A stretch of DNA of 64,000 bases from Gemmatimonadota bacterium (lineage in GTDB: Bacteria > Gemmatimonadota > Gemmatimonadetes > Gemmatimonadales > GWC2-71-9), in assembly GCA_036679605.1 (NCBI GenBank), contig JAZDCZ010000365.1, positions 32,001-96,000 of the forward strand, read 5' to 3'. Positions 30,875 through 39,891 of this stretch are shown piece after piece. The translations under genes and the position numbers were made by a program. Every line of letters starts with the position of its first letter. Position 1 is the first letter of the stretch. The notes beneath the pieces were generated by a model that had not been told where the DNA came from, searched no databases, and saw nothing but the letters and a program-made list of their open reading frames with translations.

Positions 30875-30948
<74 letters not shown>

Positions 30949-30995
30949 TTGCCGTTGCCGCAGACAACGCAGATGGCACTGATCTACGCAGATGT

Positions 30996-31031
30996 AGCCC
31001 GCCGTGGTCCGAGAGACCGCGGTGGGTTTTT
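30996..31031 (+). terminator. Intrinsic terminator after tRNA-Ile
   Basis: AGCCCGCCGTGGTC-CGAGA-GACCGCGGTGGGTT hairpin (G-U pairs allowed) running into a T tract. Confidence 0.75.
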
Positions 31032-31113
31032 GCGTGAACGGCCTCCGTCTATCCGCGGTGGTCAGTGTAATGAGTGGCCGGGTTGTTGTCATGGAGGACG
31101 GGACAGACATCCC

Positions 31114-31317
31114 GTTACACATCGAGCGCTAACCCGCTACTCAGAGGGATTCATAAGTGAGACTGCAATTGGTATTACCGATTCGGCTGGGACGACCGTA
31201 TGTTTCAACGCCTTGAGATTGTTGAGATTATCGGGGATTACCCTTGCATGATATTCCGATACGCGGCCTGGGGAGAGCAGACCATGAGCACTCCGGATAC
31301 AATCCTTATCGTTAGAC
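31114..31317 (+). repeat. Repeat A copy 1: non-coding leader ending in a GTTAGAC core (attI/Pc-like)
   Basis: Shares GTTAC.CATCGAGCGCT.AC.CGCTAC, GCCTTGAGATT.TTGAGATT.TCGGGG, CTTGCA.GATATTCCG and GCGGCCTG.GGAGA with copy 3; GTTAGAC at 31311. Confidence 0.85.
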
Positions 31318-31393
31318 GCCGCTTCAGAAACCGATATTCTGCGATGATCTTCAGATGCAAGAGCACCGAGCACGTTCTGATTACGTCCCTTCT

Positions 31394-32458
31394 ATGACGA
31401 TGCCTCGGCTGCTGCGATCGGCCAGGGCTGCGGCCCTGGTCGTCACGACGATTTCCGGCTGCGCAGATGCTCGTCGCGCACCGAGCACTGCCGAGTCTGT
31501 AACCCTCGTCCCCATGGATACGCTGGTTGCCACCGCCTCCGAGCTACTCGGCGGCGTGTACGACTTGGCGGTATCGCCGGACGGGGATGTTTATGTCGCG
31601 GACTATGGCTACAAGCACGTGCTGGTGGTCGGCCCCGACGGTGCGGTCCGCCGGACGATTGGCAAGCAAGGGTCGGGTCCTGGCGAGTTCGAAATGCCCT
31701 ACGTCGTCTACGCCGGCGCGGATTCGGTCCGGGTGTTCGACGCCGCGAGCAATCGGGTGCAGGTGTTCGACCGCGCCGGTGGGCTGGTTCGGAGCTATCG
31801 GCTGGACGCACCCGGCCTCGGAGGCGGTCGTGACTTCCGGGACGACGGTTCGCTCGCCGCCACGATTGGTGGCTTCGACAATGCGATGATCCTGGTGCTC
31901 GACGCGGCTGGCACCCGCGTCGGCAACTTCGGCGAACCAATCATTCCACCGGTGACCTTCTACGACTTCACTGCGCTCAAGTCCGAGATACGGGACGGCC
32001 GCGTCCCCGATGCGTTCCGGAATCGGGCAACACTCGCCTGGGGCCCAGAGCAGTCGCTCTATCTCGTCTTCCTCGCCGAGCCCCAGGTCCGCCGGTACGC
32101 CGCCGCCGGAAGGCTTCTGTGGACTCGTACACTGGACGAGCCCGTGCTACGCTCGGCCCGAGAGACGTTTATCCGCAAGAACATTGAGGAGCCGAACCCG
32201 TCCCGCATACACTCACTCCAGTACGTCACCGACGTCGCGGTGGTGGGTGGAGCCTTGTGGCTCCTGCTGAACACCGCCGATGAGGATGACGGGCTGCTGC
32301 TCGTGCTCCGTGCCGACGACGGCGCGGTTCGCCGCCGCGTCACCTTCCCGGGTTTGCCGAACACCGGGTACTTCGCGGTGGACCAGTCACGGCGAAGGCT
32401 GTACATAGCGCCGCGCGGTGAAGCGTCGGTACTGATTTTCGAGTTGCCGAGCTTGTGA
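31394..32458 (+). CDS. 6-bladed beta-propeller (NHL/TolB-like) lipoprotein
   Basis: Lipobox ISG-C; DLAVSPDGDVYVAD, IGKQGSGPGEF, NRVQVFD. Confidence 0.85.
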   Translation: MTMPRLLRSARAAALVVTTISGCADARRAPSTAESVTLVPMDTLVATASELLGGVYDLAVSPDGDVYVADYGYKHVLVVGPDGAVRRTIGKQGSGPGEFEMPYVVYAGADSVRVFDAASNRVQVFDRAGGLVRSYRLDAPGLGGGRDFRDDGSLAATIGGFDNAMILVLDAAGTRVGNFGEPIIPPVTFYDFTALKSEIRDGRVPDAFRNRATLAWGPEQSLYLVFLAEPQVRRYAAAGRLLWTRTLDEPVLRSARETFIRKNIEEPNPSRIHSLQYVTDVAVVGGALWLLLNTADEDDGLLLVLRADDGAVRRRVTFPGLPNTGYFAVDQSRRRLYIAPRGEASVLIFELPSL

Positions 32459-32459
32459 T

Positions 32460-32816
32460 AGCACGGTTGTCCCAGGCAAGTTTGAAATCATCTATTTCAT
32501 CCACGCGGTGAACTGTGCGCACGCCGAGTTCTACGGTCACCAGAGACTCGCCCATTATCGCGCGACAGGAGAGTTCTTCGACGTGCCTATTGGGGTTGCC
32601 ATCGATGCGATCGACGAGGTGGCCAAGCAGTTTGCCATCAACATGGACCTTGCTCGGCCTAAGAAGCGGGGCGGTTGGGGAGACAAGTGGCTCCCCCAGG
32701 CTTTCCGGCACGTGGTCAGTCCATGTCCTCATTGCGGGAAAAAGAACAAAATTCACATGCTTGCGGTGCCGTTTATCCCGAAGTGTGTAAAGTGCCGCAG
32801 AAATCTCTCGGGCTGA
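32460..32816 (+). pseudogene. 5'-truncated T5orf172/MUG113-type GIY-YIG domain followed by a zinc ribbon
   Basis: Frame open from 32460: STVVPGKFEIIYFIHAVNCAHAEFYGHQRLAHYRATGEFFDVP resembles the C-terminal half of T5orf172; CPHC...CVKC; N-terminal GIY-YIG part missing. Confidence 0.6.
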
Positions 32817-32842
32817 GGACGGATCGCCTCGTGCCGATAACG

Positions 32843-34051
32843 ATGTGCCAGCTCACGGCGCTGCTAGCATTCGCGGCGATCAGTACATTTGCCTGTGGCC
32901 AGGGCGAAGCTCCCGGGCCCTGGCTGGGCTCAATCGACACGCTGCCATCCGGCACGATCCGGACTGTGAACCCGGCCCAAGGAATCTGGAATCGCAGGAC
33001 GGCCTGGCGCATCGCAGAGAACCTCAGGATTGGATCGCTGGACGGTGGACCCGAGGAGTTTGACCGGATCGTGGATCTGGACGTGGACGATTGGGGCCGC
33101 ATCTATGTGCTCCTCGACCGCCGTGCCGAGATCCGTGTATTTGATGAACGAGGAAACTACGTTCGTACCATTGGTCGTCGAGGCGGCGGACCCGGCGAGT
33201 TCAGAGCCCCTGTCAGCTTGGACATAGACTCGCTTGGTCAGATATGGGTTACGGACCCGATGAACCTTCGGTACACCGTCTTTGACTCAACTGGTACGTT
33301 CCGCTTTGGCCGAAGTCGCCACAGCAAGTTTTCTACTTTTGGAGGGGTTCGCGGTGATAGAGTCGGTGTCGATGGAGCATTGTTCGATGCGGATGTCCAC
33401 GCTAGCGCGCCTTCCGTCTTTGAGTATCGCTTCTTCAAGCTCGACACAGCGTTCACGCCCATCGATACCATAATCGTACCCCGGGGCAACCGCACTCCGT
33501 CGACCCGTCCACTTCCGTTCCGGCCATACAGTCCGAGAGGGCTCTACTCGCTGGATCTTAGAGGATACGTGTGGTACGGTGTTTCCACCACTTATGAGGT
33601 TTTTCAGCTCGGTTTTTCCGGTGATACAGTTCGCTCGGTAGGTCGTGATTTCGAGCCGCAAGTGATAACAGACGCGGAACGTGCGTCGATAGCTGAGGCT
33701 AGCCAACGTGGCAACCGGGAGATCGGGATTCCCGGTTCTAGGAGTAGTCCGGACATACCTACACACAAGCCCGCAATAGCGCGGATATTCGTTGACTCGC
33801 GTGGCTATTTGTGGGTTGTACCGTATGGCGAAGTAGACGGTGAGACGCACAACCTCGATGTGTTTGATCCAGACGGGAAATATCTGGGTCAAGCAACAGC
33901 AGATTTCCCCATTGGTCTTGAGCCCAGCGGGATGCCGGCTGTGCTAAGAGGAACGCCGATAGTCATCAGAGGTGACAACCTGTATGCGGTGACCTTCGAC
34001 GATCTCGACGTACCCTTCGTTGTCCGAGCACGTATTCAAGTACGGAGGTAG
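32843..34051 (+). CDS. 6-bladed beta-propeller lipoprotein
   Basis: Lipobox TFA-C; LRIGSLDG, DVDDWGRIYV, IGRRGGGPGEF, DVFDPDGKYLG, DDLDVPFVVRARI. Confidence 0.88.
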   Translation: MCQLTALLAFAAISTFACGQGEAPGPWLGSIDTLPSGTIRTVNPAQGIWNRRTAWRIAENLRIGSLDGGPEEFDRIVDLDVDDWGRIYVLLDRRAEIRVFDERGNYVRTIGRRGGGPGEFRAPVSLDIDSLGQIWVTDPMNLRYTVFDSTGTFRFGRSRHSKFSTFGGVRGDRVGVDGALFDADVHASAPSVFEYRFFKLDTAFTPIDTIIVPRGNRTPSTRPLPFRPYSPRGLYSLDLRGYVWYGVSTTYEVFQLGFSGDTVRSVGRDFEPQVITDAERASIAEASQRGNREIGIPGSRSSPDIPTHKPAIARIFVDSRGYLWVVPYGEVDGETHNLDVFDPDGKYLGQATADFPIGLEPSGMPAVLRGTPIVIRGDNLYAVTFDDLDVPFVVRARIQVRR

Positions 34052-34077
34052 CTTCGTGAGCATGCCTTTTAACCCGA

Positions 34078-34241
34078 AAACTCCGATTGTTATTACGTAT
34101 CCGCTGTGACGGCTCTATCTTCCAATGCCTTGGATTGTCGAGATTATCGCTGGGGGAGACTCTTGCCTGATATTCGGGTAGTGCGGCCTGCGGAGATCGT
34201 GAACCCGTTACGCGCCGCGCGTAATACTTGATAGAGCTTGA
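34078..34241 (+). repeat. Repeat A copy 2 (5'-shortened) ending at the cassette start GATAGAGCTTGA
   Basis: AAACTCCGATTGTTATTACGTATC...TGTGACGGC.CTATCTTCCAATGCCTTG...GCGGCCTGCGGAGATCG...AACCCGT...CGCGTAAT nearly identical to copy 3. Confidence 0.9.
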
Positions 34242-34253
34242 GGGGAGATCGTC

Positions 34254-34931
34254 GTGAAGCCGAAGGAATTGCTGGAAGCACTACAAAGAGTAATTGGTCT
34301 CTCAACAGATTCCGCTGTAGCGCGGCTAATTGGGCTTACTTCGGGTCGTGTAAGCCAATGGCGTTCTGGCAAGCGCGATTTAAGTGCTCGCCAGGTGGCA
34401 AACCTAGTGAAACGAGTAGCTTCATTAGCCGGAACCGAGCAACTCGGAAACGCTATTCGTCCAATTGTTGAGTTGTACCCTGTAGATTGTGTCGCGTCGA
34501 AGCAAGATGCCCGCTGGCTGATTCTCCCGACGGATAAGCGAAAAAATCCCCGTCGGAACAAGCTACGAAAGCACCTTGAAAAAGCAAAAGGCATCTATTT
34601 CTTCTACAACTCAGAAGGGGAAGTGGTATATGTAGGTCAGACCCAGAAACGTACTCTGTGGAAAAGAATGAATGAAACATTCAACCGAGAGGCGCAATCA
34701 CATCAGGCATATGTTGTGCGGCATCCGTCCACAGGAAGCGCTTTTGTTCCCGCATGGAGTAAGCTGCGCCAGCCCGTCAAGCGAATTGTCTATCTGTATG
34801 ATATCGCAGCCTATTTTTCAGCCTACGAGGTAGCGGAGCCACTCATAGACAATCTTGAAGCAATGATAGTACGTGCTTTCTGTAATGACTTGGCAAATGT
34901 GAAAATGGAGAAATTCAAATTCAAGCTCTAA
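34254..34931 (+). CDS. XRE-type HTH fused to a GIY-YIG nuclease-like domain (integron cassette gene)
   Basis: TDSAVARLIGLTSGRVSQWRSGK (HTH); GIYFFYNSEGEVVYVGQT, R, LEAMIVR..N (GIY-YIG); AT-richer than the flanks; stop codon lies in the attC TAAC. Confidence 0.75.
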   Translation: MKPKELLEALQRVIGLSTDSAVARLIGLTSGRVSQWRSGKRDLSARQVANLVKRVASLAGTEQLGNAIRPIVELYPVDCVASKQDARWLILPTDKRKNPRRNKLRKHLEKAKGIYFFYNSEGEVVYVGQTQKRTLWKRMNETFNREAQSHQAYVVRHPSTGSAFVPAWSKLRQPVKRIVYLYDIAAYFSAYEVAEPLIDNLEAMIVRAFCNDLANVKMEKFKFKL

Positions 34932-35044
34932 CAAAACACTCCAGACCGACGCTCAACACTTTGCCGGTTCTGTGTTCTCGCTGCGCTCCATATTCACACA
35001 AGAACGGGCAAACTGTTGAGCGCGGCTGAGCGTAGTCGTTATAC
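34926..35044 (+). other. attC site (119 bp)
   Basis: R'' CTCTAAC, L'' CTCCAGAC-like, internal palindrome CGCTCAACACTTTGCCGGTTCT / AGAACGGGCAAACTGTTGAGCG, L' GCTGAG, R' GTTATAC. Confidence 0.9.
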
Positions 35045-35108
35045 AACCCGACCACCGTCTTTGTGCTAGACTGCAGGTGGCCTTGAACTCACTATTTGGC
35101 GGCGTACC

Positions 35109-35441
35109 TTGAAGTTACCTCACAGTGACCGAGCCCAGATTCCATCGGAGAAGTTGCGTGGCTACTTGCTCTCTTCGGAGCATCCGATCGGTAGGTTCAA
35201 GGCGCGGTTCTTCCACGCACTTGGCTACAAAGCGGAGAGTTGGGAGAAACTCGAACGAGACCTCGTCGATGCGGCCCAATCCGCGGAGGCGGAGCTGGTC
35301 CCGTCCCCGTATGGCGACAAGTACCTTGTTGGGTGTACACTTACAGGGCCGGCAGGATTGTCGGCCGGTGTGATCTCAGTGTGGATCCTGGCGCGCAGCC
35401 AGGATATTCCGCGCTTTATCACGGCATATCCTTCGGAGTGA
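35109..35441 (+). CDS. DUF6883-like protein (putative toxin)
   Basis: KLRGYLLSSEHPIGRFKARFFHALGY, YGDKY, SVWI, PRFITAYP. Confidence 0.7.
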   Translation: MKLPHSDRAQIPSEKLRGYLLSSEHPIGRFKARFFHALGYKAESWEKLERDLVDAAQSAEAELVPSPYGDKYLVGCTLTGPAGLSAGVISVWILARSQDIPRFITAYPSE

Positions 35442-35443
35442 TA

Positions 35444-35677
35444 ATGGACTACAAGACTCTCGATACGGTGGTCCTAGACCGCGATCTTCCAGATCATTCG
35501 CTTCGGCGTGGAGACTTAGGTGCGGTGGTGTACGTCCACGAACCAGATGGGATCGAGGTCGAGTTCGTCACGGCATCGGGAAAGACCGAGGCGCTCGTGA
35601 CACTCAGCTCCTCGGATGTACGACCTGTCGCCGAAACCGATCTGGTTTCGGTTCGTTCCTTCCCGAAATCAGCCTAG
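35444..35677 (+). CDS. DUF4926 protein (putative antitoxin/immunity partner)
   Basis: LDTVVLDRDLP..LRRGDLGAVV...EVEFVTASGKTEALVTL. Confidence 0.8.
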   Translation: MDYKTLDTVVLDRDLPDHSLRRGDLGAVVYVHEPDGIEVEFVTASGKTEALVTLSSSDVRPVAETDLVSVRSFPKSA

Positions 35678-35845
35678 CCGTCACAGACGGGTTGCATAAC
35701 TCGACTAAGAAGTACCTTGTTGAGACGGTGCAGTTTCCCTGCGTGCTGCCATAGCCAGTTTTCATCCCCACTCCCGCCGATCCCAGGCAACGCCCGAAGG
35801 ATACTTCAAGAATGGTTGTGGCGGATTCCGGAGTGAAATCCAGCC

Positions 35846-36013
35846 ACGCCTATTTAAGTGCGGCACTACGATGGTGTCGATTGTGGTGTCGATTATGGTG
35901 TCGATTGATACCGGTACATGACGATCTCAACGAAGCACGATGTGGGCAGATCGCGCGTTCTGTCTAGGAAATGGGCAAGGTGTCGTGATCCGATTGGCCT
36001 CGTAGCAGCCTGA
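35846..36013 (+). repeat. Repeat B copy 1 with 3 tandem RTGGTGTCGATT 12-mers (35871-35906); ends in GCCTGA
   Basis: Direct repeat of 36843-37000. Confidence 0.92.
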
Positions 36014-36053
36014 GGCGTGTCGTTAGACGGCACGCAAGAGAGCGAGGCGTGGC

Positions 36054-36410
36054 TCAGATGCGTCGCTGACGTACGTGAGTACCATCCACGATACTGATGT
36101 GATCGCGCCAAGTCACATCGGACCGCGTCAGAAGATCTAGAAGCAAACGTGTGATCTCCTCTGCGCTTTTCGGGATGATGCGCAAGAGCAGAACACCGGC
36201 AGCCAGTCGGTCAGTGCCACGCACTGCAAGTTCGCCGAAGTCCCGATCGAAAGTCACAATGAGTCGGTCCTCACGAATCGCTCTTTCGACATGTCTCACA
36301 TCTGCGGCGCCCGGCTCGGCCTCGGTGGTCGAATAGACATCGTGCCCTGCGGAACGCAGGGCACGGACGGTATCGAGGGGAATGTTTTCGTCTGCCAGCA
36401 ACCGCATCAC
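36054..36410 (-). CDS. DUF5615 PIN-like toxin
   Basis: MRLLADENIP, GHDV, D, EDRLIVTFDRDFGEL; overlaps the upstream DUF433 gene. Confidence 0.88.
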   Translation of the reverse strand: MMRLLADENIPLDTVRALRSAGHDVYSTTEAEPGAADVRHVERAIREDRLIVTFDRDFGELAVRGTDRLAAGVLLLRIIPKSAEEITRLLLDLLTRSDVTWRDHISIVDGTHVRQRRI

Positions 36411-36646
36411 GCGGCGCCGGGACGGACCGGGAGGAGCGTCTGATCGTGAAGCACTTCAGCCGCGTAGGCGAACACTGCACGAAGCGCATCATCGCCCAGC
36501 TGGGGGTAGTTCTTTTGGAGCTGTTCCTGTGACCAGCCTTCAGCCAACAGTCCCAGCACGAAATCGACGGCGAGCCGAGTTCCCTTGATGACGGGCTTGC
36601 CACCGACAACAGCGGGGTCGGCATGAATGTGCTCAGTCCAAGTCAC
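36407..36646 (-). CDS. DUF433 antitoxin
   Basis: IHADPAVVGGKPVIKGTRLAV..L..G.S.E.L..NYPQL. Confidence 0.92.
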   Translation of the reverse strand: MTWTEHIHADPAVVGGKPVIKGTRLAVDFVLGLLAEGWSQEQLQKNYPQLGDDALRAVFAYAAEVLHDQTLLPVRPGAA

Positions 36647-36842
36647 CTGTCCCTCCTGGTCCCCTAAGGTACTGCGGGGGCGTGCCGTCTAACAAGCGCT
36701 GGCTGCCGGCGCGGTAGGGAGGGAGGTTGTGCGTATGGAGAGTCTGAGAATACGGACCACCGGTGCGTGACGTGCCGTAGGAGGACGTCGAGGAATTCCT
36801 AAGGGTCGATTGGCATACGTGCTCGTGTAACCATCGTTCCGT

Positions 36843-37000
36843 ACGCCTGTCTAAGTGAGTGCACCACGATGGTGTCGATTGTGGTGTCGATTGATACCGT
36901 TACATGACGATCTCGGCGAACCACGATGTGGGCAGATCGCGCGTTCTGTCTAGGAAAGTGGGCAAGGTGTCGTGATCCGATTGGCCTGGTAGCTGCCTGA
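36843..37000 (+). repeat. Repeat B copy 2 with 2 tandem RTGGTGTCGATT 12-mers (36869-36892); runs into the tRNA fragment
   Basis: Direct repeat of 35846-36013; the terminal GCCTGA continues as tRNA-Ile anticodon sequence. Confidence 0.92.
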
Positions 37001-37080
37001 TAAGCGTGAGGTCGGAAGTTCACCTGCCCATCCCCGTCTCACCCCGTGGTGCGCTAACGCGTTAACTCTTCCCTGGCCCA
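36995..37080 (+). pseudogene. Duplicated 3' half of tRNA-Ile (attR-like) interrupted by about 41 nt in the T-loop
   Basis: GCCTGATAAGCGTGAGGTCGGAAGTTCA (36995-37022) and AACTCTTCCCTGGCCCA (37064-37080) are identical to tRNA 30905-30948. Confidence 0.9.
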
Positions 37081-37216
37081 TGACTTGAAACTGTGATCCC
37101 GCTTGGTGTTACGACATTAGGCAGGACTTCGCGTCGACGAAGCTGACAGCGCGTGTATTCATTGGTAGCACGATCTCGCTGCTTGTATCATACGTACAAT
37201 GTATGTACATTAGGAA

Positions 37217-37513
37217 GTGGCTGAACTCCGCTTTGAATGGGACGAACGCAAAGAGACCTCGAACCGGCGCAAGCATGGTATCTCGTTCGACGAGGCGAAG
37301 ACGGTCTTCGCGGATGACTGCGCGCTCTTGCTCGACGATCCGGATCACTCTGAGCAAGAAGATCGGTTCGTGTTGCTCGGACTAAGCTCGGCGCTTCGGA
37401 CCTTGGTTGTCTGCCATTGTTACGGCGAACCAGATGAGGTCATTCGGATCATCTCGGCGCGGAAGGCCACACGACCAGAGCGACAGATCTACAATCGCAG
37501 GTGGCGCCAATGA
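37217..37513 (+). CDS. brnT: BrnT family ribonuclease toxin
   Basis: FEWDERKETSNRRKHGISFDEAKTVFAD, HSEQEDRF, IRIISARKAT. Confidence 0.93.
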   Translation: MAELRFEWDERKETSNRRKHGISFDEAKTVFADDCALLLDDPDHSEQEDRFVLLGLSSALRTLVVCHCYGEPDEVIRIISARKATRPERQIYNRRWRQ

Positions 37514-37737
37514 GAAAAGAGTATGATTTCACGAAGGCCCGGAAGAACCCGTATGCAAAGCGGCTGAAGAAGTCGGTGACGATCCGTCTTGATACCGACA
37601 CGGTCGCGTACTTCAAGGATCTGGCGGCCGAAACGGGCATCGCCTATCAGACCCTGATCAATCTCTACCTTCGCGACTGTGCGGCGTCGCATAAGAAGCT
37701 GTCGATGCGTTGGGCGTCCAAGTTCGGTGCTGCCTAG
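37510..37737 (+). CDS. brnA: BrnA/CopG-like antitoxin
   Basis: MRKEYDF..NPYAKRLKKSVTIRLD..YFK....GIAYQTLINLYL; ATGA overlap with brnT. Confidence 0.9.
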   Translation: MRKEYDFTKARKNPYAKRLKKSVTIRLDTDTVAYFKDLAAETGIAYQTLINLYLRDCAASHKKLSMRWASKFGAA

Positions 37738-37887
37738 TACCTGTAAGGCCTTCGCTGTCAAGCGGCCGTAGCTAGACAACGCAGACTTTTTTGGTTTCCG
37801 TTTTGCGGTTCGTTTTCCAGCAGTGGCGTTATGGTTTCATTGCCAATGTGGTGCAAGAAAATGCTCTGCACGAAACTCCTCACTCGG

Positions 37888-38088
37888 GTTACCCATCGAG
37901 CGCTGACACGCTACCCAGCGGGATTCAGCGGCAAACTCCGATTGTTATTACGTATCGACTGTGACGGCCCTATCTTCCAATGCCTTGAGATTATTGAGAT
38001 TGTCGGGGGGAAGACTCTTGCACGATATTCCGTTAGGCGGCCTGCGGAGATCGGTAACCCGTCCGGGGAGTCGCGTAATGGGTTGGGC
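37888..38088 (+). repeat. Repeat A copy 3 ending in a GTTGGGC core
   Basis: Full-length homolog of copy 1 and near-identical to copy 2; GTTGGGC at 38082. Confidence 0.9.
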
Positions 38089-38109
38089 GATCACCAATCG
38101 AGAATAGCG

Positions 38110-38535
38110 ATGACACATCTGTTATCAACGGAAGATAGAGATTTTCAGGCCCAGTTTGAGTCCCGCAAGTCTCCACCTGCGGAGTTCAATCATCGTGCGC
38201 ACCTGAGACTGCCCTACGCTTACCTGGCCGAGCACGACACCGAAACAGCTCATCGATTGATGCGCGAAGCGCTGCAACACCTTCTCGAACATAACAGCGT
38301 CGATATTTCGAAATGCCATGAAACCATGACTCGAGCGTGGATTATGGCAGTACGGCACTTCCTGGAGGGGATTTCAAACTCCGAATCATCTGACTCATTC
38401 ATTGAGCAGAATCCAACAATGCTCTATGCGAAAATCATGATGACGCACTACTCACCGGAGGTGCTCCTTTCGGACGAGGCTTGCGCAAGATTCGTTGAGC
38501 CAGATCTAGGCCCAATATCGAGATATGGTGGGTAA
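38110..38535 (+). CDS. Hypothetical cassette protein (FxHxxHLR family)
   Basis: MTHLLSTEDRDFQAQFE..EFNHRAHLRL, HETMTRAW, HYS, FVEPDL; bounded by GTTGGGCGA...TCGCCCAAC. Confidence 0.7.
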   Translation: MTHLLSTEDRDFQAQFESRKSPPAEFNHRAHLRLPYAYLAEHDTETAHRLMREALQHLLEHNSVDISKCHETMTRAWIMAVRHFLEGISNSESSDSFIEQNPTMLYAKIMMTHYSPEVLLSDEACARFVEPDLGPISRYGG

Positions 38536-38538
38536 GTC

Positions 38539-38634
38539 GCCCAACCAGCCGCTACAATGGACGCCTCAGCCGCTACGCGGTCGCGATTCGCTCCGGGCTG
38601 CGGCCTCCGCCGCCACTGAGCCTAGACGTTGGGC
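38539..38634 (+). other. attC site (96 bp)
   Basis: R'' GCCCAAC (RYYYAAC) directly after the stop; L''/L' CTACAATGGACG / CGCCACTGAG; R' GTTGGGC (GTTRRRY). Confidence 0.9.
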
Positions 38635-38664
38635 TCCTCGCCCGTGAAAGGAGGGACCAAGAGA

Positions 38665-39891
38665 ATGAGAATGGGCCGTCACGTGCGGTTCTCGTTGAGT
38701 GACATCTTCTGCATGGGCGTGGGTCTTTGTGCCCTCTCTGTATGCACTTCGGCCTGTGGGAGCGATTCGAAGATTTCGCAAACGGCTGACTGGACCGTGC
38801 GCGACAGCGCCGGAGTCACCCTGGTTTCCAACCACACGGACGGTTTGACACGCGGCTGCGTGACGTTTTCCCAAGACCCCGAAACCACCATACCCTCGAG
38901 TGGCTTTAGTCCCCCACTGTACCGTGTGCGAGGAGGAGTAGTGCTGGACGACGGCCGGATCGCCGTCTTGAATGCCGGGAACAAGGAACTCCTCTTCTTT
39001 GGAGCCGACGGCAGGTTTGAACGTGCGGTCGGTCGTTCTGGACGCGGCCCGGGAGAATTTGTCGATCCGAGATGGCTGGGTCAGGGGAACAACGACACGT
39101 TATTCGTATGGGATGGTGGTTTGATGCGGCTCTCGACATTCGATGGGACGGGAGAGTTACTAGCGCTACATGAAGTGCGAGTCGGCGTTGAGGAGCGAAA
39201 GCCCATCGCGATCCGCGGACGGTTCGATGATGGCTCCTTCTTCTTCAGCCCCGGACCGCTGATGTTCTTTGACGGCACCGCCGGTATCTTGCGGTTTCCC
39301 GAAACGTACGGACGCTACAACGTTGAGACGCGTCAGGCGGAGCAGCTAGTCGAGGGGGCAAGCTCGGAGACGGTGGCTGGCCCGGGCGTGCCGGTGTACG
39401 AGCTGCCCTTCGGCAAGATGGACGTAGCGATCGCAAACGGCGACGCTGTGGTAATCGGCGACAATGGCACGTCCATTTTGCGGTATTACGATCTACAAGG
39501 ACAACTCCGCCGTATAGTGGAGTGGATGTCAGAACCGATTCCGATCACGGATCGCGACCAGAGGGCATACCGTCAGGATTTTGACGAATCAGTTCCGGCA
39601 CGTTTTCACCTACCCGCCACTGCCCGATTTGCCAAAGAGCGACCCAGATTCTCGTCAATAACGAGCGATACGATTGGGTGGATTTGGGTACGATCATACA
39701 CCGCGGGCTGGGAGTCCTCGGGCCATTGGCTGGTCTTTGATGAGGACGGCGTTTTGATATGCTCCGTCAACCCACCACCGGCTCGTCGATTCCGCCCGCT
39801 GCAGATAAGTGAGACGCACATGCTGGGCGTGCAGCGCAATGAGGACGGTGAGGAGACTCTGGTGCTTTATTCCCTTGTCCGCAACATGTGA
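38665..39891 (+). CDS. 6-bladed beta-propeller lipoprotein (cassette gene)
   Basis: AGGAGG SD; lipobox TSA-C; VRDSAGVTLVSN, VGRSGRGPGEF, WLVFDEDG; starts right after the attC. Confidence 0.88.
   Translation: MRMGRHVRFSLSDIFCMGVGLCALSVCTSACGSDSKISQTADWTVRDSAGVTLVSNHTDGLTRGCVTFSQDPETTIPSSGFSPPLYRVRGGVVLDDGRIAVLNAGNKELLFFGADGRFERAVGRSGRGPGEFVDPRWLGQGNNDTLFVWDGGLMRLSTFDGTGELLALHEVRVGVEERKPIAIRGRFDDGSFFFSPGPLMFFDGTAGILRFPETYGRYNVETRQAEQLVEGASSETVAGPGVPVYELPFGKMDVAIANGDAVVIGDNGTSILRYYDLQGQLRRIVEWMSEPIPITDRDQRAYRQDFDESVPARFHLPATARFAKERPRFSSITSDTIGWIWVRSYTAGWESSGHWLVFDEDGVLICSVNPPPARRFRPLQISETHMLGVQRNEDGEETLVLYSLVRNM

Follow-up and report, generated by a model that had tools for sequence, protein, structure and literature searches.

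The 64,000-nucleotide stretch of a Gemmatimonadota bacterium analysed here (the window) carries three copies of a non-coding element, each standing ahead of what looks like the start of an integron gene cassette. It lies on a 125-kb contig (C296) of a 6.7-Mb source genome, labelled G000, which is compared below with a congener (G001) and a further relative (G298). A first-pass annotation, made from the letters alone, had taken the three copies for attI sites, the docking sites at which an integron integrase (IntI) inserts cassettes, multiplied into a platform with several entry points. We find that they belong to a set of some twenty docking sites spread through the genome. They are probably the heads of inverted integrons of the kind described in Treponema denticola (PMC3607928, PMC4889954), in which intI points to attI and the cassettes and attI lies 3' of intI; these would have lost their intI and are now dispersed and headless. 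The arrangement is a variant of two known ones, the cluster of attC sites lacking an integron integrase (CALIN) and the delta-attI cassette, and not a purpose-built multi-entry platform. The window heads of today are most likely relics.

BLAST against the genome recovered all three copies at the positions that the annotation had given, and aligned copies 2 and 3 at 87% identity over 132 bp (E = 4e-37), copies 1 and 3 at 79% over 165 bp (E = 6e-31) and copies 1 and 2 at 76% over 119 bp (E = 3e-13). Copies 2 and 3 had been called near-identical; over their full alignment they are 82% alike, the value of 87% applying within the BLAST core. As described, every copy terminates in GCGGCCTG(C/G)GGAGA, followed after 34, 33 and 31 bp, respectively, by its core (at 31311, 34230 and 38082). 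Every docking site in the window is damaged or chimeric: in copy 2 the GTT of the core has mutated to GAT, copy 3 is two bases short ahead of its core GTTGGGC, and the last 34 bp of copy 1 are a different sequence, common to three other loci. At 38079 a contig from another study (run X3), which carries the same first cassette as copy 3, is longer by two bases, and one from a third study (run X4) matches from exactly 31311 and is joined to the leader via different letters. The attI-like tail of copy 1, 45 bp in length, occurs four times with differing left flanks (window 31277-31317, C278:1333-1378, C276:91833-91877 and C426:42164-42208); at C278 its core matches an R'' end of attC 568 bp downstream, and no intI link was found at any of its four loci.

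That the copies are a product of assembly or binning is extremely unlikely, and for the window this is refuted. The bin is large (6.7 Mb against 3.7 Mb in the congener) and 6.3% contaminated; its 96 transfer RNA (tRNA) or transfer-messenger RNA calls and a second typA at 50% identity (C317:595-2370) point to some foreign DNA. However, the three copies sit on a single contig, rpsB and serS are single, and segments of the congener backbone each match one single large G000 contig, including the element-bearing C296, C91, C173, C276, C278 and C319. Moreover, Logan contigs of the probable source run cover the stretch in five overlapping pieces with no differences at a depth of 11.5-17.3, and the stretch is therefore not misassembled; being an independent assembly, they test how the contig was built but add no independent biological evidence. 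Small contigs, including both that carry an intact intI, may be foreign.

The annotation knew of only three copies, and the genome holds far more. BLAST found further ones on C91, C162, C161 and C165, and an iterated profile collected 27 pieces at E <= 0.05, with none on the reversed genome. An alignment of 14 longer copies separates subfamily B, the window type (62-82% alike within), from subfamily A (59-91%). A profile built from six B copies alone recovers the A copies behind intI stumps (E = 8e-6 and 6e-5), colinear to the same right end, and has no match on the reversed genome. The right end is reached by 20 of the 27 pieces; at this end their common sequence breaks off at a fixed G, beyond which mostly different DNA or cassettes follow (C276 and C278 share a follower resembling an insertion sequence, IS). 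The left ends of most copies are scattered over the profile, with the right end fixed at the cassette crossover.

At five of the 20 right ends the core matches an R'' within 3 kb at 11 or more bases, and at six it does so at nine or more, against 0.7% and 6.6%, respectively, of 1500 random GTTRRRY sites; GTT itself is kept in only nine. The suggestion that copies elsewhere would also precede cassette starts is thus borne out by core/R'' matches at right ends. In the window, the cores of copies 2 and 3 indeed complement the R'' of the next attC, with 11 and nine matched bases, and neither the motif/stem scan nor our attC model finds an attC ending at any of the three cores. The proposed attI-type crossover is therefore supported for copies 2 and 3, each of which heads an array whose first cassette is closed by an attC; it is putative for copy 1, behind which we found no attC and no matching R'' up to copy 2 (best 8/12), so that an array of its own is not confirmed there. 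The whole window contains just two attC sites by the motif/stem scan (34926-35044 and 38539-38634). The attC model (R1), trained on 15 G000 sites that include both of these, gives circular scores for the window and may miss atypical attC, so that the motif scan is the independent evidence. Also in agreement with the annotation, C296 has no match to TIGR02249 or PF00589 and the window thus no intI. The fixed G, the differing followers and the core/R'' matches above random are together the signature of a cassette insertion site, and cassettes have in the past been inserted at the fixed G of the heads.

Besides two intact integron integrase genes (on C73 and C407; TIGR02249, 462 and 456 bits), both in classical divergent integrons whose attI is another sequence than the element, the bin has five intI 3' stumps detected with a nucleotide profile (on C173, C251 and C276, and two on C5). 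All five are followed on the same strand by a subfamily-A copy. Among 40 genomes of relatives, 22 have intI, and we searched 20 of the relatives' intI loci, taken with wider flanks, with the attC model at a cut-off of at least 25 bits. Twelve loci gave attC sites, in all 12 downstream on the intI strand and in none upstream; the other eight gave weak matches on the downstream side in two cases and none in six, all near contig ends. In this lineage intI and cassettes are as a rule co-oriented, and the integrons of this family and order are almost all inverted, those of the intact G000 integrases being divergent. In eight of the 12 loci attI could be placed by its complementarity to the first R'', 124-325 bp past the YTHV motif, with the consensus TCCAATAGTA before GTT (L078-L093). 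A matrix made from these eight sites ranks 13 of the 20 G000 right ends within the top 5% relative to 12,746 background sites, two ends being possibly mis-registered by one base; in copy 2 the ten bases ahead of the G score in the top 3%. The stumps, the layout in relatives and the matrix together suggest that the element is a spacer plus attI behind a co-oriented intI, and it is probable that it comprises some 200 bp after the intI stop, ending in attI. This places it downstream of a co-oriented intI and not, as the annotation had proposed, in an attI/Pc region (Pc being the cassette promoter) beside a divergent one. A divergent attI/Pc leader was considered and rejected, as the attI sites of C73, C407 and a truncated intI on C182 are other sequences.

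Several results weigh against this reading. No intI remnant adjoins the window copies (shuffle p 0.07-0.99), no B copy was found beside any intI, and 400 family genomes yielded two short matches without intI. Subfamilies A and B are only 39-55% identical, and the intI link of the window copies therefore rests on homology; for these copies the co-oriented layout would hold by homology only. Copies 1 and 3 do not score on the relatives' attI matrix. Clusters within 10 kb of a tRNA number four of 21, which is chance level (2.9 expected, P = 0.33), so that tRNA islands explain the window and not the genome-wide spread, and the route by which the heads dispersed is one that we infer. The cognate intI could also lie intact in unassembled DNA, as several copies are at contig ends. 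A remnant upstream of copy 1 that seemed plausible by eye was rejected, being not above shuffles (p 0.18-0.99) and having no profile match. Searches for an intact cognate platform gave 0 matches with a GTDB pattern, in collection scans that may omit records near G000, and 0 matches plus two chance matches with metagenome patterns; BLAST of copy 3 in 40 relatives gave 0 matches, and an intI C-terminal motif search gave four matches, none with the element.

It is quite unlikely that the three copies form a single working platform of several attI sites with Pc promoters, on which an integrase acts in trans. Such a platform would account for three heads within 7 kb, two of them with matched first cassettes, and the bin does have two intact IntI, while IntI1 is reported to act on delta-attI2 (PMC12901181). 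However, a crude sigma-70 consensus scan places no Pc inside any copy (the 7.8-kb region has four sites where 3.6 are expected, all of them outside the elements), all three docking sites are impaired as described above, and the copies, which have diverged as part of a family spread over the genome, are set apart by island ends and an IS remnant. The intact IntI, moreover, belong to divergent integrons with other attI, lie on contigs of 5 and 10 kb, and are less like the stumps (81% and 75% for C73 and C407) than are the IntI of relatives (up to 91% over 34 residues). Since they are not of the cognate type, and an attI is reportedly recognised by no integrase other than its cognate one (PMC2095811), the proposed integrase in trans is unsupported, although service by the bin's IntI is possible. 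A quick-method tree of IntI (35 rows) pairs the G000 integrases, weakly supported, among those of relatives, which is not enough to place their origin; G001 lacks an intact intI.

The separators between the window copies are explained by island ends and an IS end. A tRNA-Ile gene is the integration site of a stack of islands, with a 150-bp repeat at 35863 and 36861 and a duplicated 3' half of tRNA-Ile after the second copy of that repeat. Island right ends of this type were found in 19 of 300 family genomes, with a tRNA-Ile 3' piece after them at six of 11 inspected loci. In G298, typA and tRNA-Ile are followed by a phage-type tyrosine integrase and then by a tandem pair of such island ends, and by this comparison the window appears to be the same typA-tRNA-Ile site with the integrase gone. 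Copies 1 and 2 lie inside the first island and copy 3 beyond the second island end. The duplicated tRNA-Ile half (36995-37080) has its T-loop interrupted by about 40 unrelated bases, and the run X4 contig skips from 30931 to 37064.

The 139 bp to the left of copy 3 begin right after the R'' of the BrnT/BrnA cassette. The same sequence is present in 21 of 400 family genomes, and in most of 19 relatives' loci it starts after an R''-like RYYYAAC. In full copies it proves to be the non-coding part that follows the transposase gene of an IS110-family element (PF01548 and PF02371 in a full relative). This IS1111 end is joined to six G000 heads, at differing points. The segment resembles the IS1111-attC group, with its DEDD transposase of the IS110 family, long non-coding region downstream of tnp and insertion at the attC end (PMC11187229), from whose members it differs in that only 139 bp are left. 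The IS1111-type element (L132:262-1296, which is G298 C13; L152; C273 and C404 of G000) has a non-coding end of more than 400 bp, targets the attC R'' in those 21 of 400 family genomes and has no Rfam match; it is a candidate for a new attC-targeting seekRNA system, and its two near-identical copies in G298 suggest recent activity. Two other interpretations of the ends were rejected: the left repeated segment, taken for a part of the platform or for a second, outward attI, is the IS1111 end, and a 'giant attC' from the left and right ends of a longer unit fails, as these do not pair.

Their many dispersed copies and the six IS1111 fusions might also suggest that the elements themselves are miniature inverted-repeat transposable elements (MITEs) or IS ends that happen to precede cassettes; each copy has 5-bp matches near both ends, and copy 3 an imperfect 28-nt inverted repeat. 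Yet the IS end belongs to an element in its own right, which encodes a transposase, and the head element is present at just one of the 19 IS loci examined in relatives, that of the congener. The inverted repeat of copy 3 is absent from copies 1 and 2 and from C276, the 5-bp matches of copies 1 and 3 are just GTT cores, and the variable left and fixed right ends do not fit the pair of sharp ends, the terminal inverted repeats and the target duplication expected of such an element. Folding is nothing above shuffles (z -0.64 and -0.33), and Rfam assigns no family to the elements, matching only tRNA and an unrelated riboswitch. This reading is largely refuted, and we regard it as very unlikely.

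In G001 a single 2-kb stretch contains a longer intI stump and two heads, one of them truncated, together with a cassette and the IS end. Upstream of this stump, G001 and C276 of G000 share a block at 91% identity, as against mostly 70-77% in backbone segments, which suggests that heads ride on exchanged DNA. For the same reason we rejected the locus formed by pcm, a membrane gene and the intI stump as a sedentary ancestral site; the G001 flank, furthermore, matches another G000 contig. A 16-kb block of 88% identity, well above backbone, between L200 (G001 C12) and C28 of G000 shows that further exchanged DNA exists.

Under the interpretation of the window elements as heads of inverted integrons, the cognate integrase, while intact, would have inserted cassettes at the heads. 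An attI with one or two cassettes may then have been copied on accessory DNA, such as tRNA-targeted islands and blocks exchanged between species, and excisions by IntI at secondary sites, of the delta-attI kind, probably also copied heads. Deletions, often from an IS1111 element inserted in a neighbouring attC, would have removed the integrase and trimmed the left ends, and the tRNA-Ile pile-up of the window would have collected three heads at different times.

A more active role, in which attI is a self-spreading module, is doubtful. Here IntI would act on attI and either a GTT resembling a core at the intI end or another secondary site upstream; an attI-bearing circle with no gene or one cassette would be released and re-insert elsewhere, and docking sites would multiply. 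The homology of copies 1 and 3 begins at a GTT that aligns with a GTT in the last codons of type-A intI, contigs of runs X2 and X3 begin matching at exactly 37888, and at C5:64400-64570 a decayed attC is directly followed by an intI stump and attI. Delta-attI cassettes are reported to be excised and inserted by IntI1 (PMC12901181), and genome-inserted cassettes to excise at nearby sites (10.1101/2022.09.11.507474). On the other hand, the left ends of other copies are scattered, type-A copies mostly retain intI sequence left of the GTT, the left GTT is found in two window copies only, the left flank of copy 3 is a deletion junction, and none of the copies is flanked neatly by an intact attC on one side and a core on the other. 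The idea that three intI stumps begin at a common G|TT crossover was rejected, for the longer G001 stump reveals internal deletions in C173 and C276. The general form of this idea, namely that in inverted integrons IntI excises its own docking site (from the intI-end GTT to attI or a downstream attC) and re-inserts it, making attI a mobile unit, we likewise regard as rather unlikely.

Inverted integrons, CALINs, IS1111-attC elements and delta-attI cassettes have all been described. In G000, as distinct from the inverted integrons described for Treponema, the co-oriented intI is decayed or gone and the head is in at least 20 places; one attI per integron is the stated norm (PMC3607928). The window resembles a CALIN (PMC4889954) in that its two attC lie 3.5 kb apart with intI elsewhere in the bin. 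The G000 clusters differ in keeping recognisable attI heads, several per cluster, where CALIN detection as published ignores attI. Delta-attI cassettes of class 1 and 2 integrons consist of attI pieces within arrays, placed after a cassette that has kept only the R'' of its attC (PMC12901181), the delta-attI2 piece of up to 244 nt occurring inside clinical arrays (PMC12901181). The G000 pieces, in contrast, are 40-200 bp of an inverted-integron head, found genome-wide, and mostly have IS or island DNA between the R'' and the piece. In the window, copy 2 follows an R''-like TTTTAAC, the IS end intervenes before copy 3, and no cassette precedes copy 1. In the literature covered, mostly open papers without their supplements, we found no report of at least 20 attI heads dispersed through one chromosome. 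Integron surveys detect attC and intI and are described as being incapable of searching for attI sites of unknown sequence (PMC4889954), so that clusters without an integrase are usually interpreted as headless remains or as insertions off target. Many G000 clusters carry an attI head, of two subfamilies, which demonstrates that the heads themselves are copied and scattered. An attI sequence signature is thereby gained for a lineage with almost all integrons inverted. If IntI moves heads, one integron could seed many capture points across the chromosome and inside arrays, and a mobile attI would be an unrecognised source of CALINs; if the heads are passive relics, they would offer a well-resolved case of an integron decaying through IS1111-attC insertion, the accretion of islands and deletion.

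Table 1. Features of the window around the three heads (positions are those of the window)
Feature	Position	Strand	Evidence and remarks
tRNA-Ile(GAT), integration site of island stack	30875..30948	+	ARAGORN, Rfam
Copy 1, predicted subfamily-B intI-3' spacer	31114..31276	+	BLAST, alignment; nearest copy 3 (79%) and C91 (78%)
Copy 1 foreign tail and core GTTAGAC, crossover G at 31311	31277..31317	+	Tail common to C278, C276:91835, C426
6-bladed beta-propeller open reading frame (ORF) after copy 1	31355..32458	+	PF17170; no attC found
Second 6-bladed beta-propeller ORF	32675..34051	+	PF17170
Copy 2, 5'-truncated predicted subfamily-B spacer and attI; core GATAGAG, G at 34230	34069..34236	+	
First cassette of copy 2, ORF 34254-34931 (weak GIY-YIG), intact attC 34926-35044	34230..35044	+	
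DUF6883/DUF4926 toxin-antitoxin-like cassette; R'' 35694-35700, remaining attC lost	35038..35700	+	
Island right end, attR-like arm repeats, first copy	35863..36013	+	
DUF433/DUF5615 toxin-antitoxin cassette, genes on - strand; core GTTAGAC, R'' GTCTAAC, attC truncated	36022..36693	+	
Island right end, second copy, with interrupted tRNA-Ile 3' half (36995-37025, 37064-37080)	36861..37080	+	
BrnT/BrnA cassette, decayed core ATTAGGC, decayed R'' GCCTAGT	37116..37738	+	
Non-coding end of IS1111/IS110-family element, directly after R'', other IS parts deleted	37739..37877	-	
Copy 3, predicted subfamily-B spacer and attI; core GTTGGGC, G at 38082	37888..38088	+	
First cassette of copy 3, ORF 38110-38535 (no Pfam family), intact attC 38539-38634	38082..38634	+	
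Second cassette start GTTGGGC and 6-bladed beta-propeller ORF	38628..39891	+	No attC found behind

Copy 2 begins 17 bp past the stop of the second beta-propeller ORF, at the R''-like TTTTAAC, for which no matching core was identified. Between 35038 and 37738 the decayed stack retains three toxin-antitoxin-type cassettes in a row, each of which has a broken attC. A 234-codon open frame (37831-38535) starts in the IS remnant, crosses copy 3 and extends into the gene of the first cassette; it matches no Pfam family and is probably a chance read-through. Elsewhere in the genome, a 105-bp sequence, 98-100% identical at C276:1-105, C278:1-105, C319:1-105, C292:3456-3560 and C311:51971-52075, probably marks the end of an IS that was active recently; its start in C276 and C278 lies inside the attI core of a subfamily-A head, at CTAG, and C5:82044 is similar. 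About 1.7 kb upstream of the C91 copy there is a fluoride riboswitch (L010:1252-1322).

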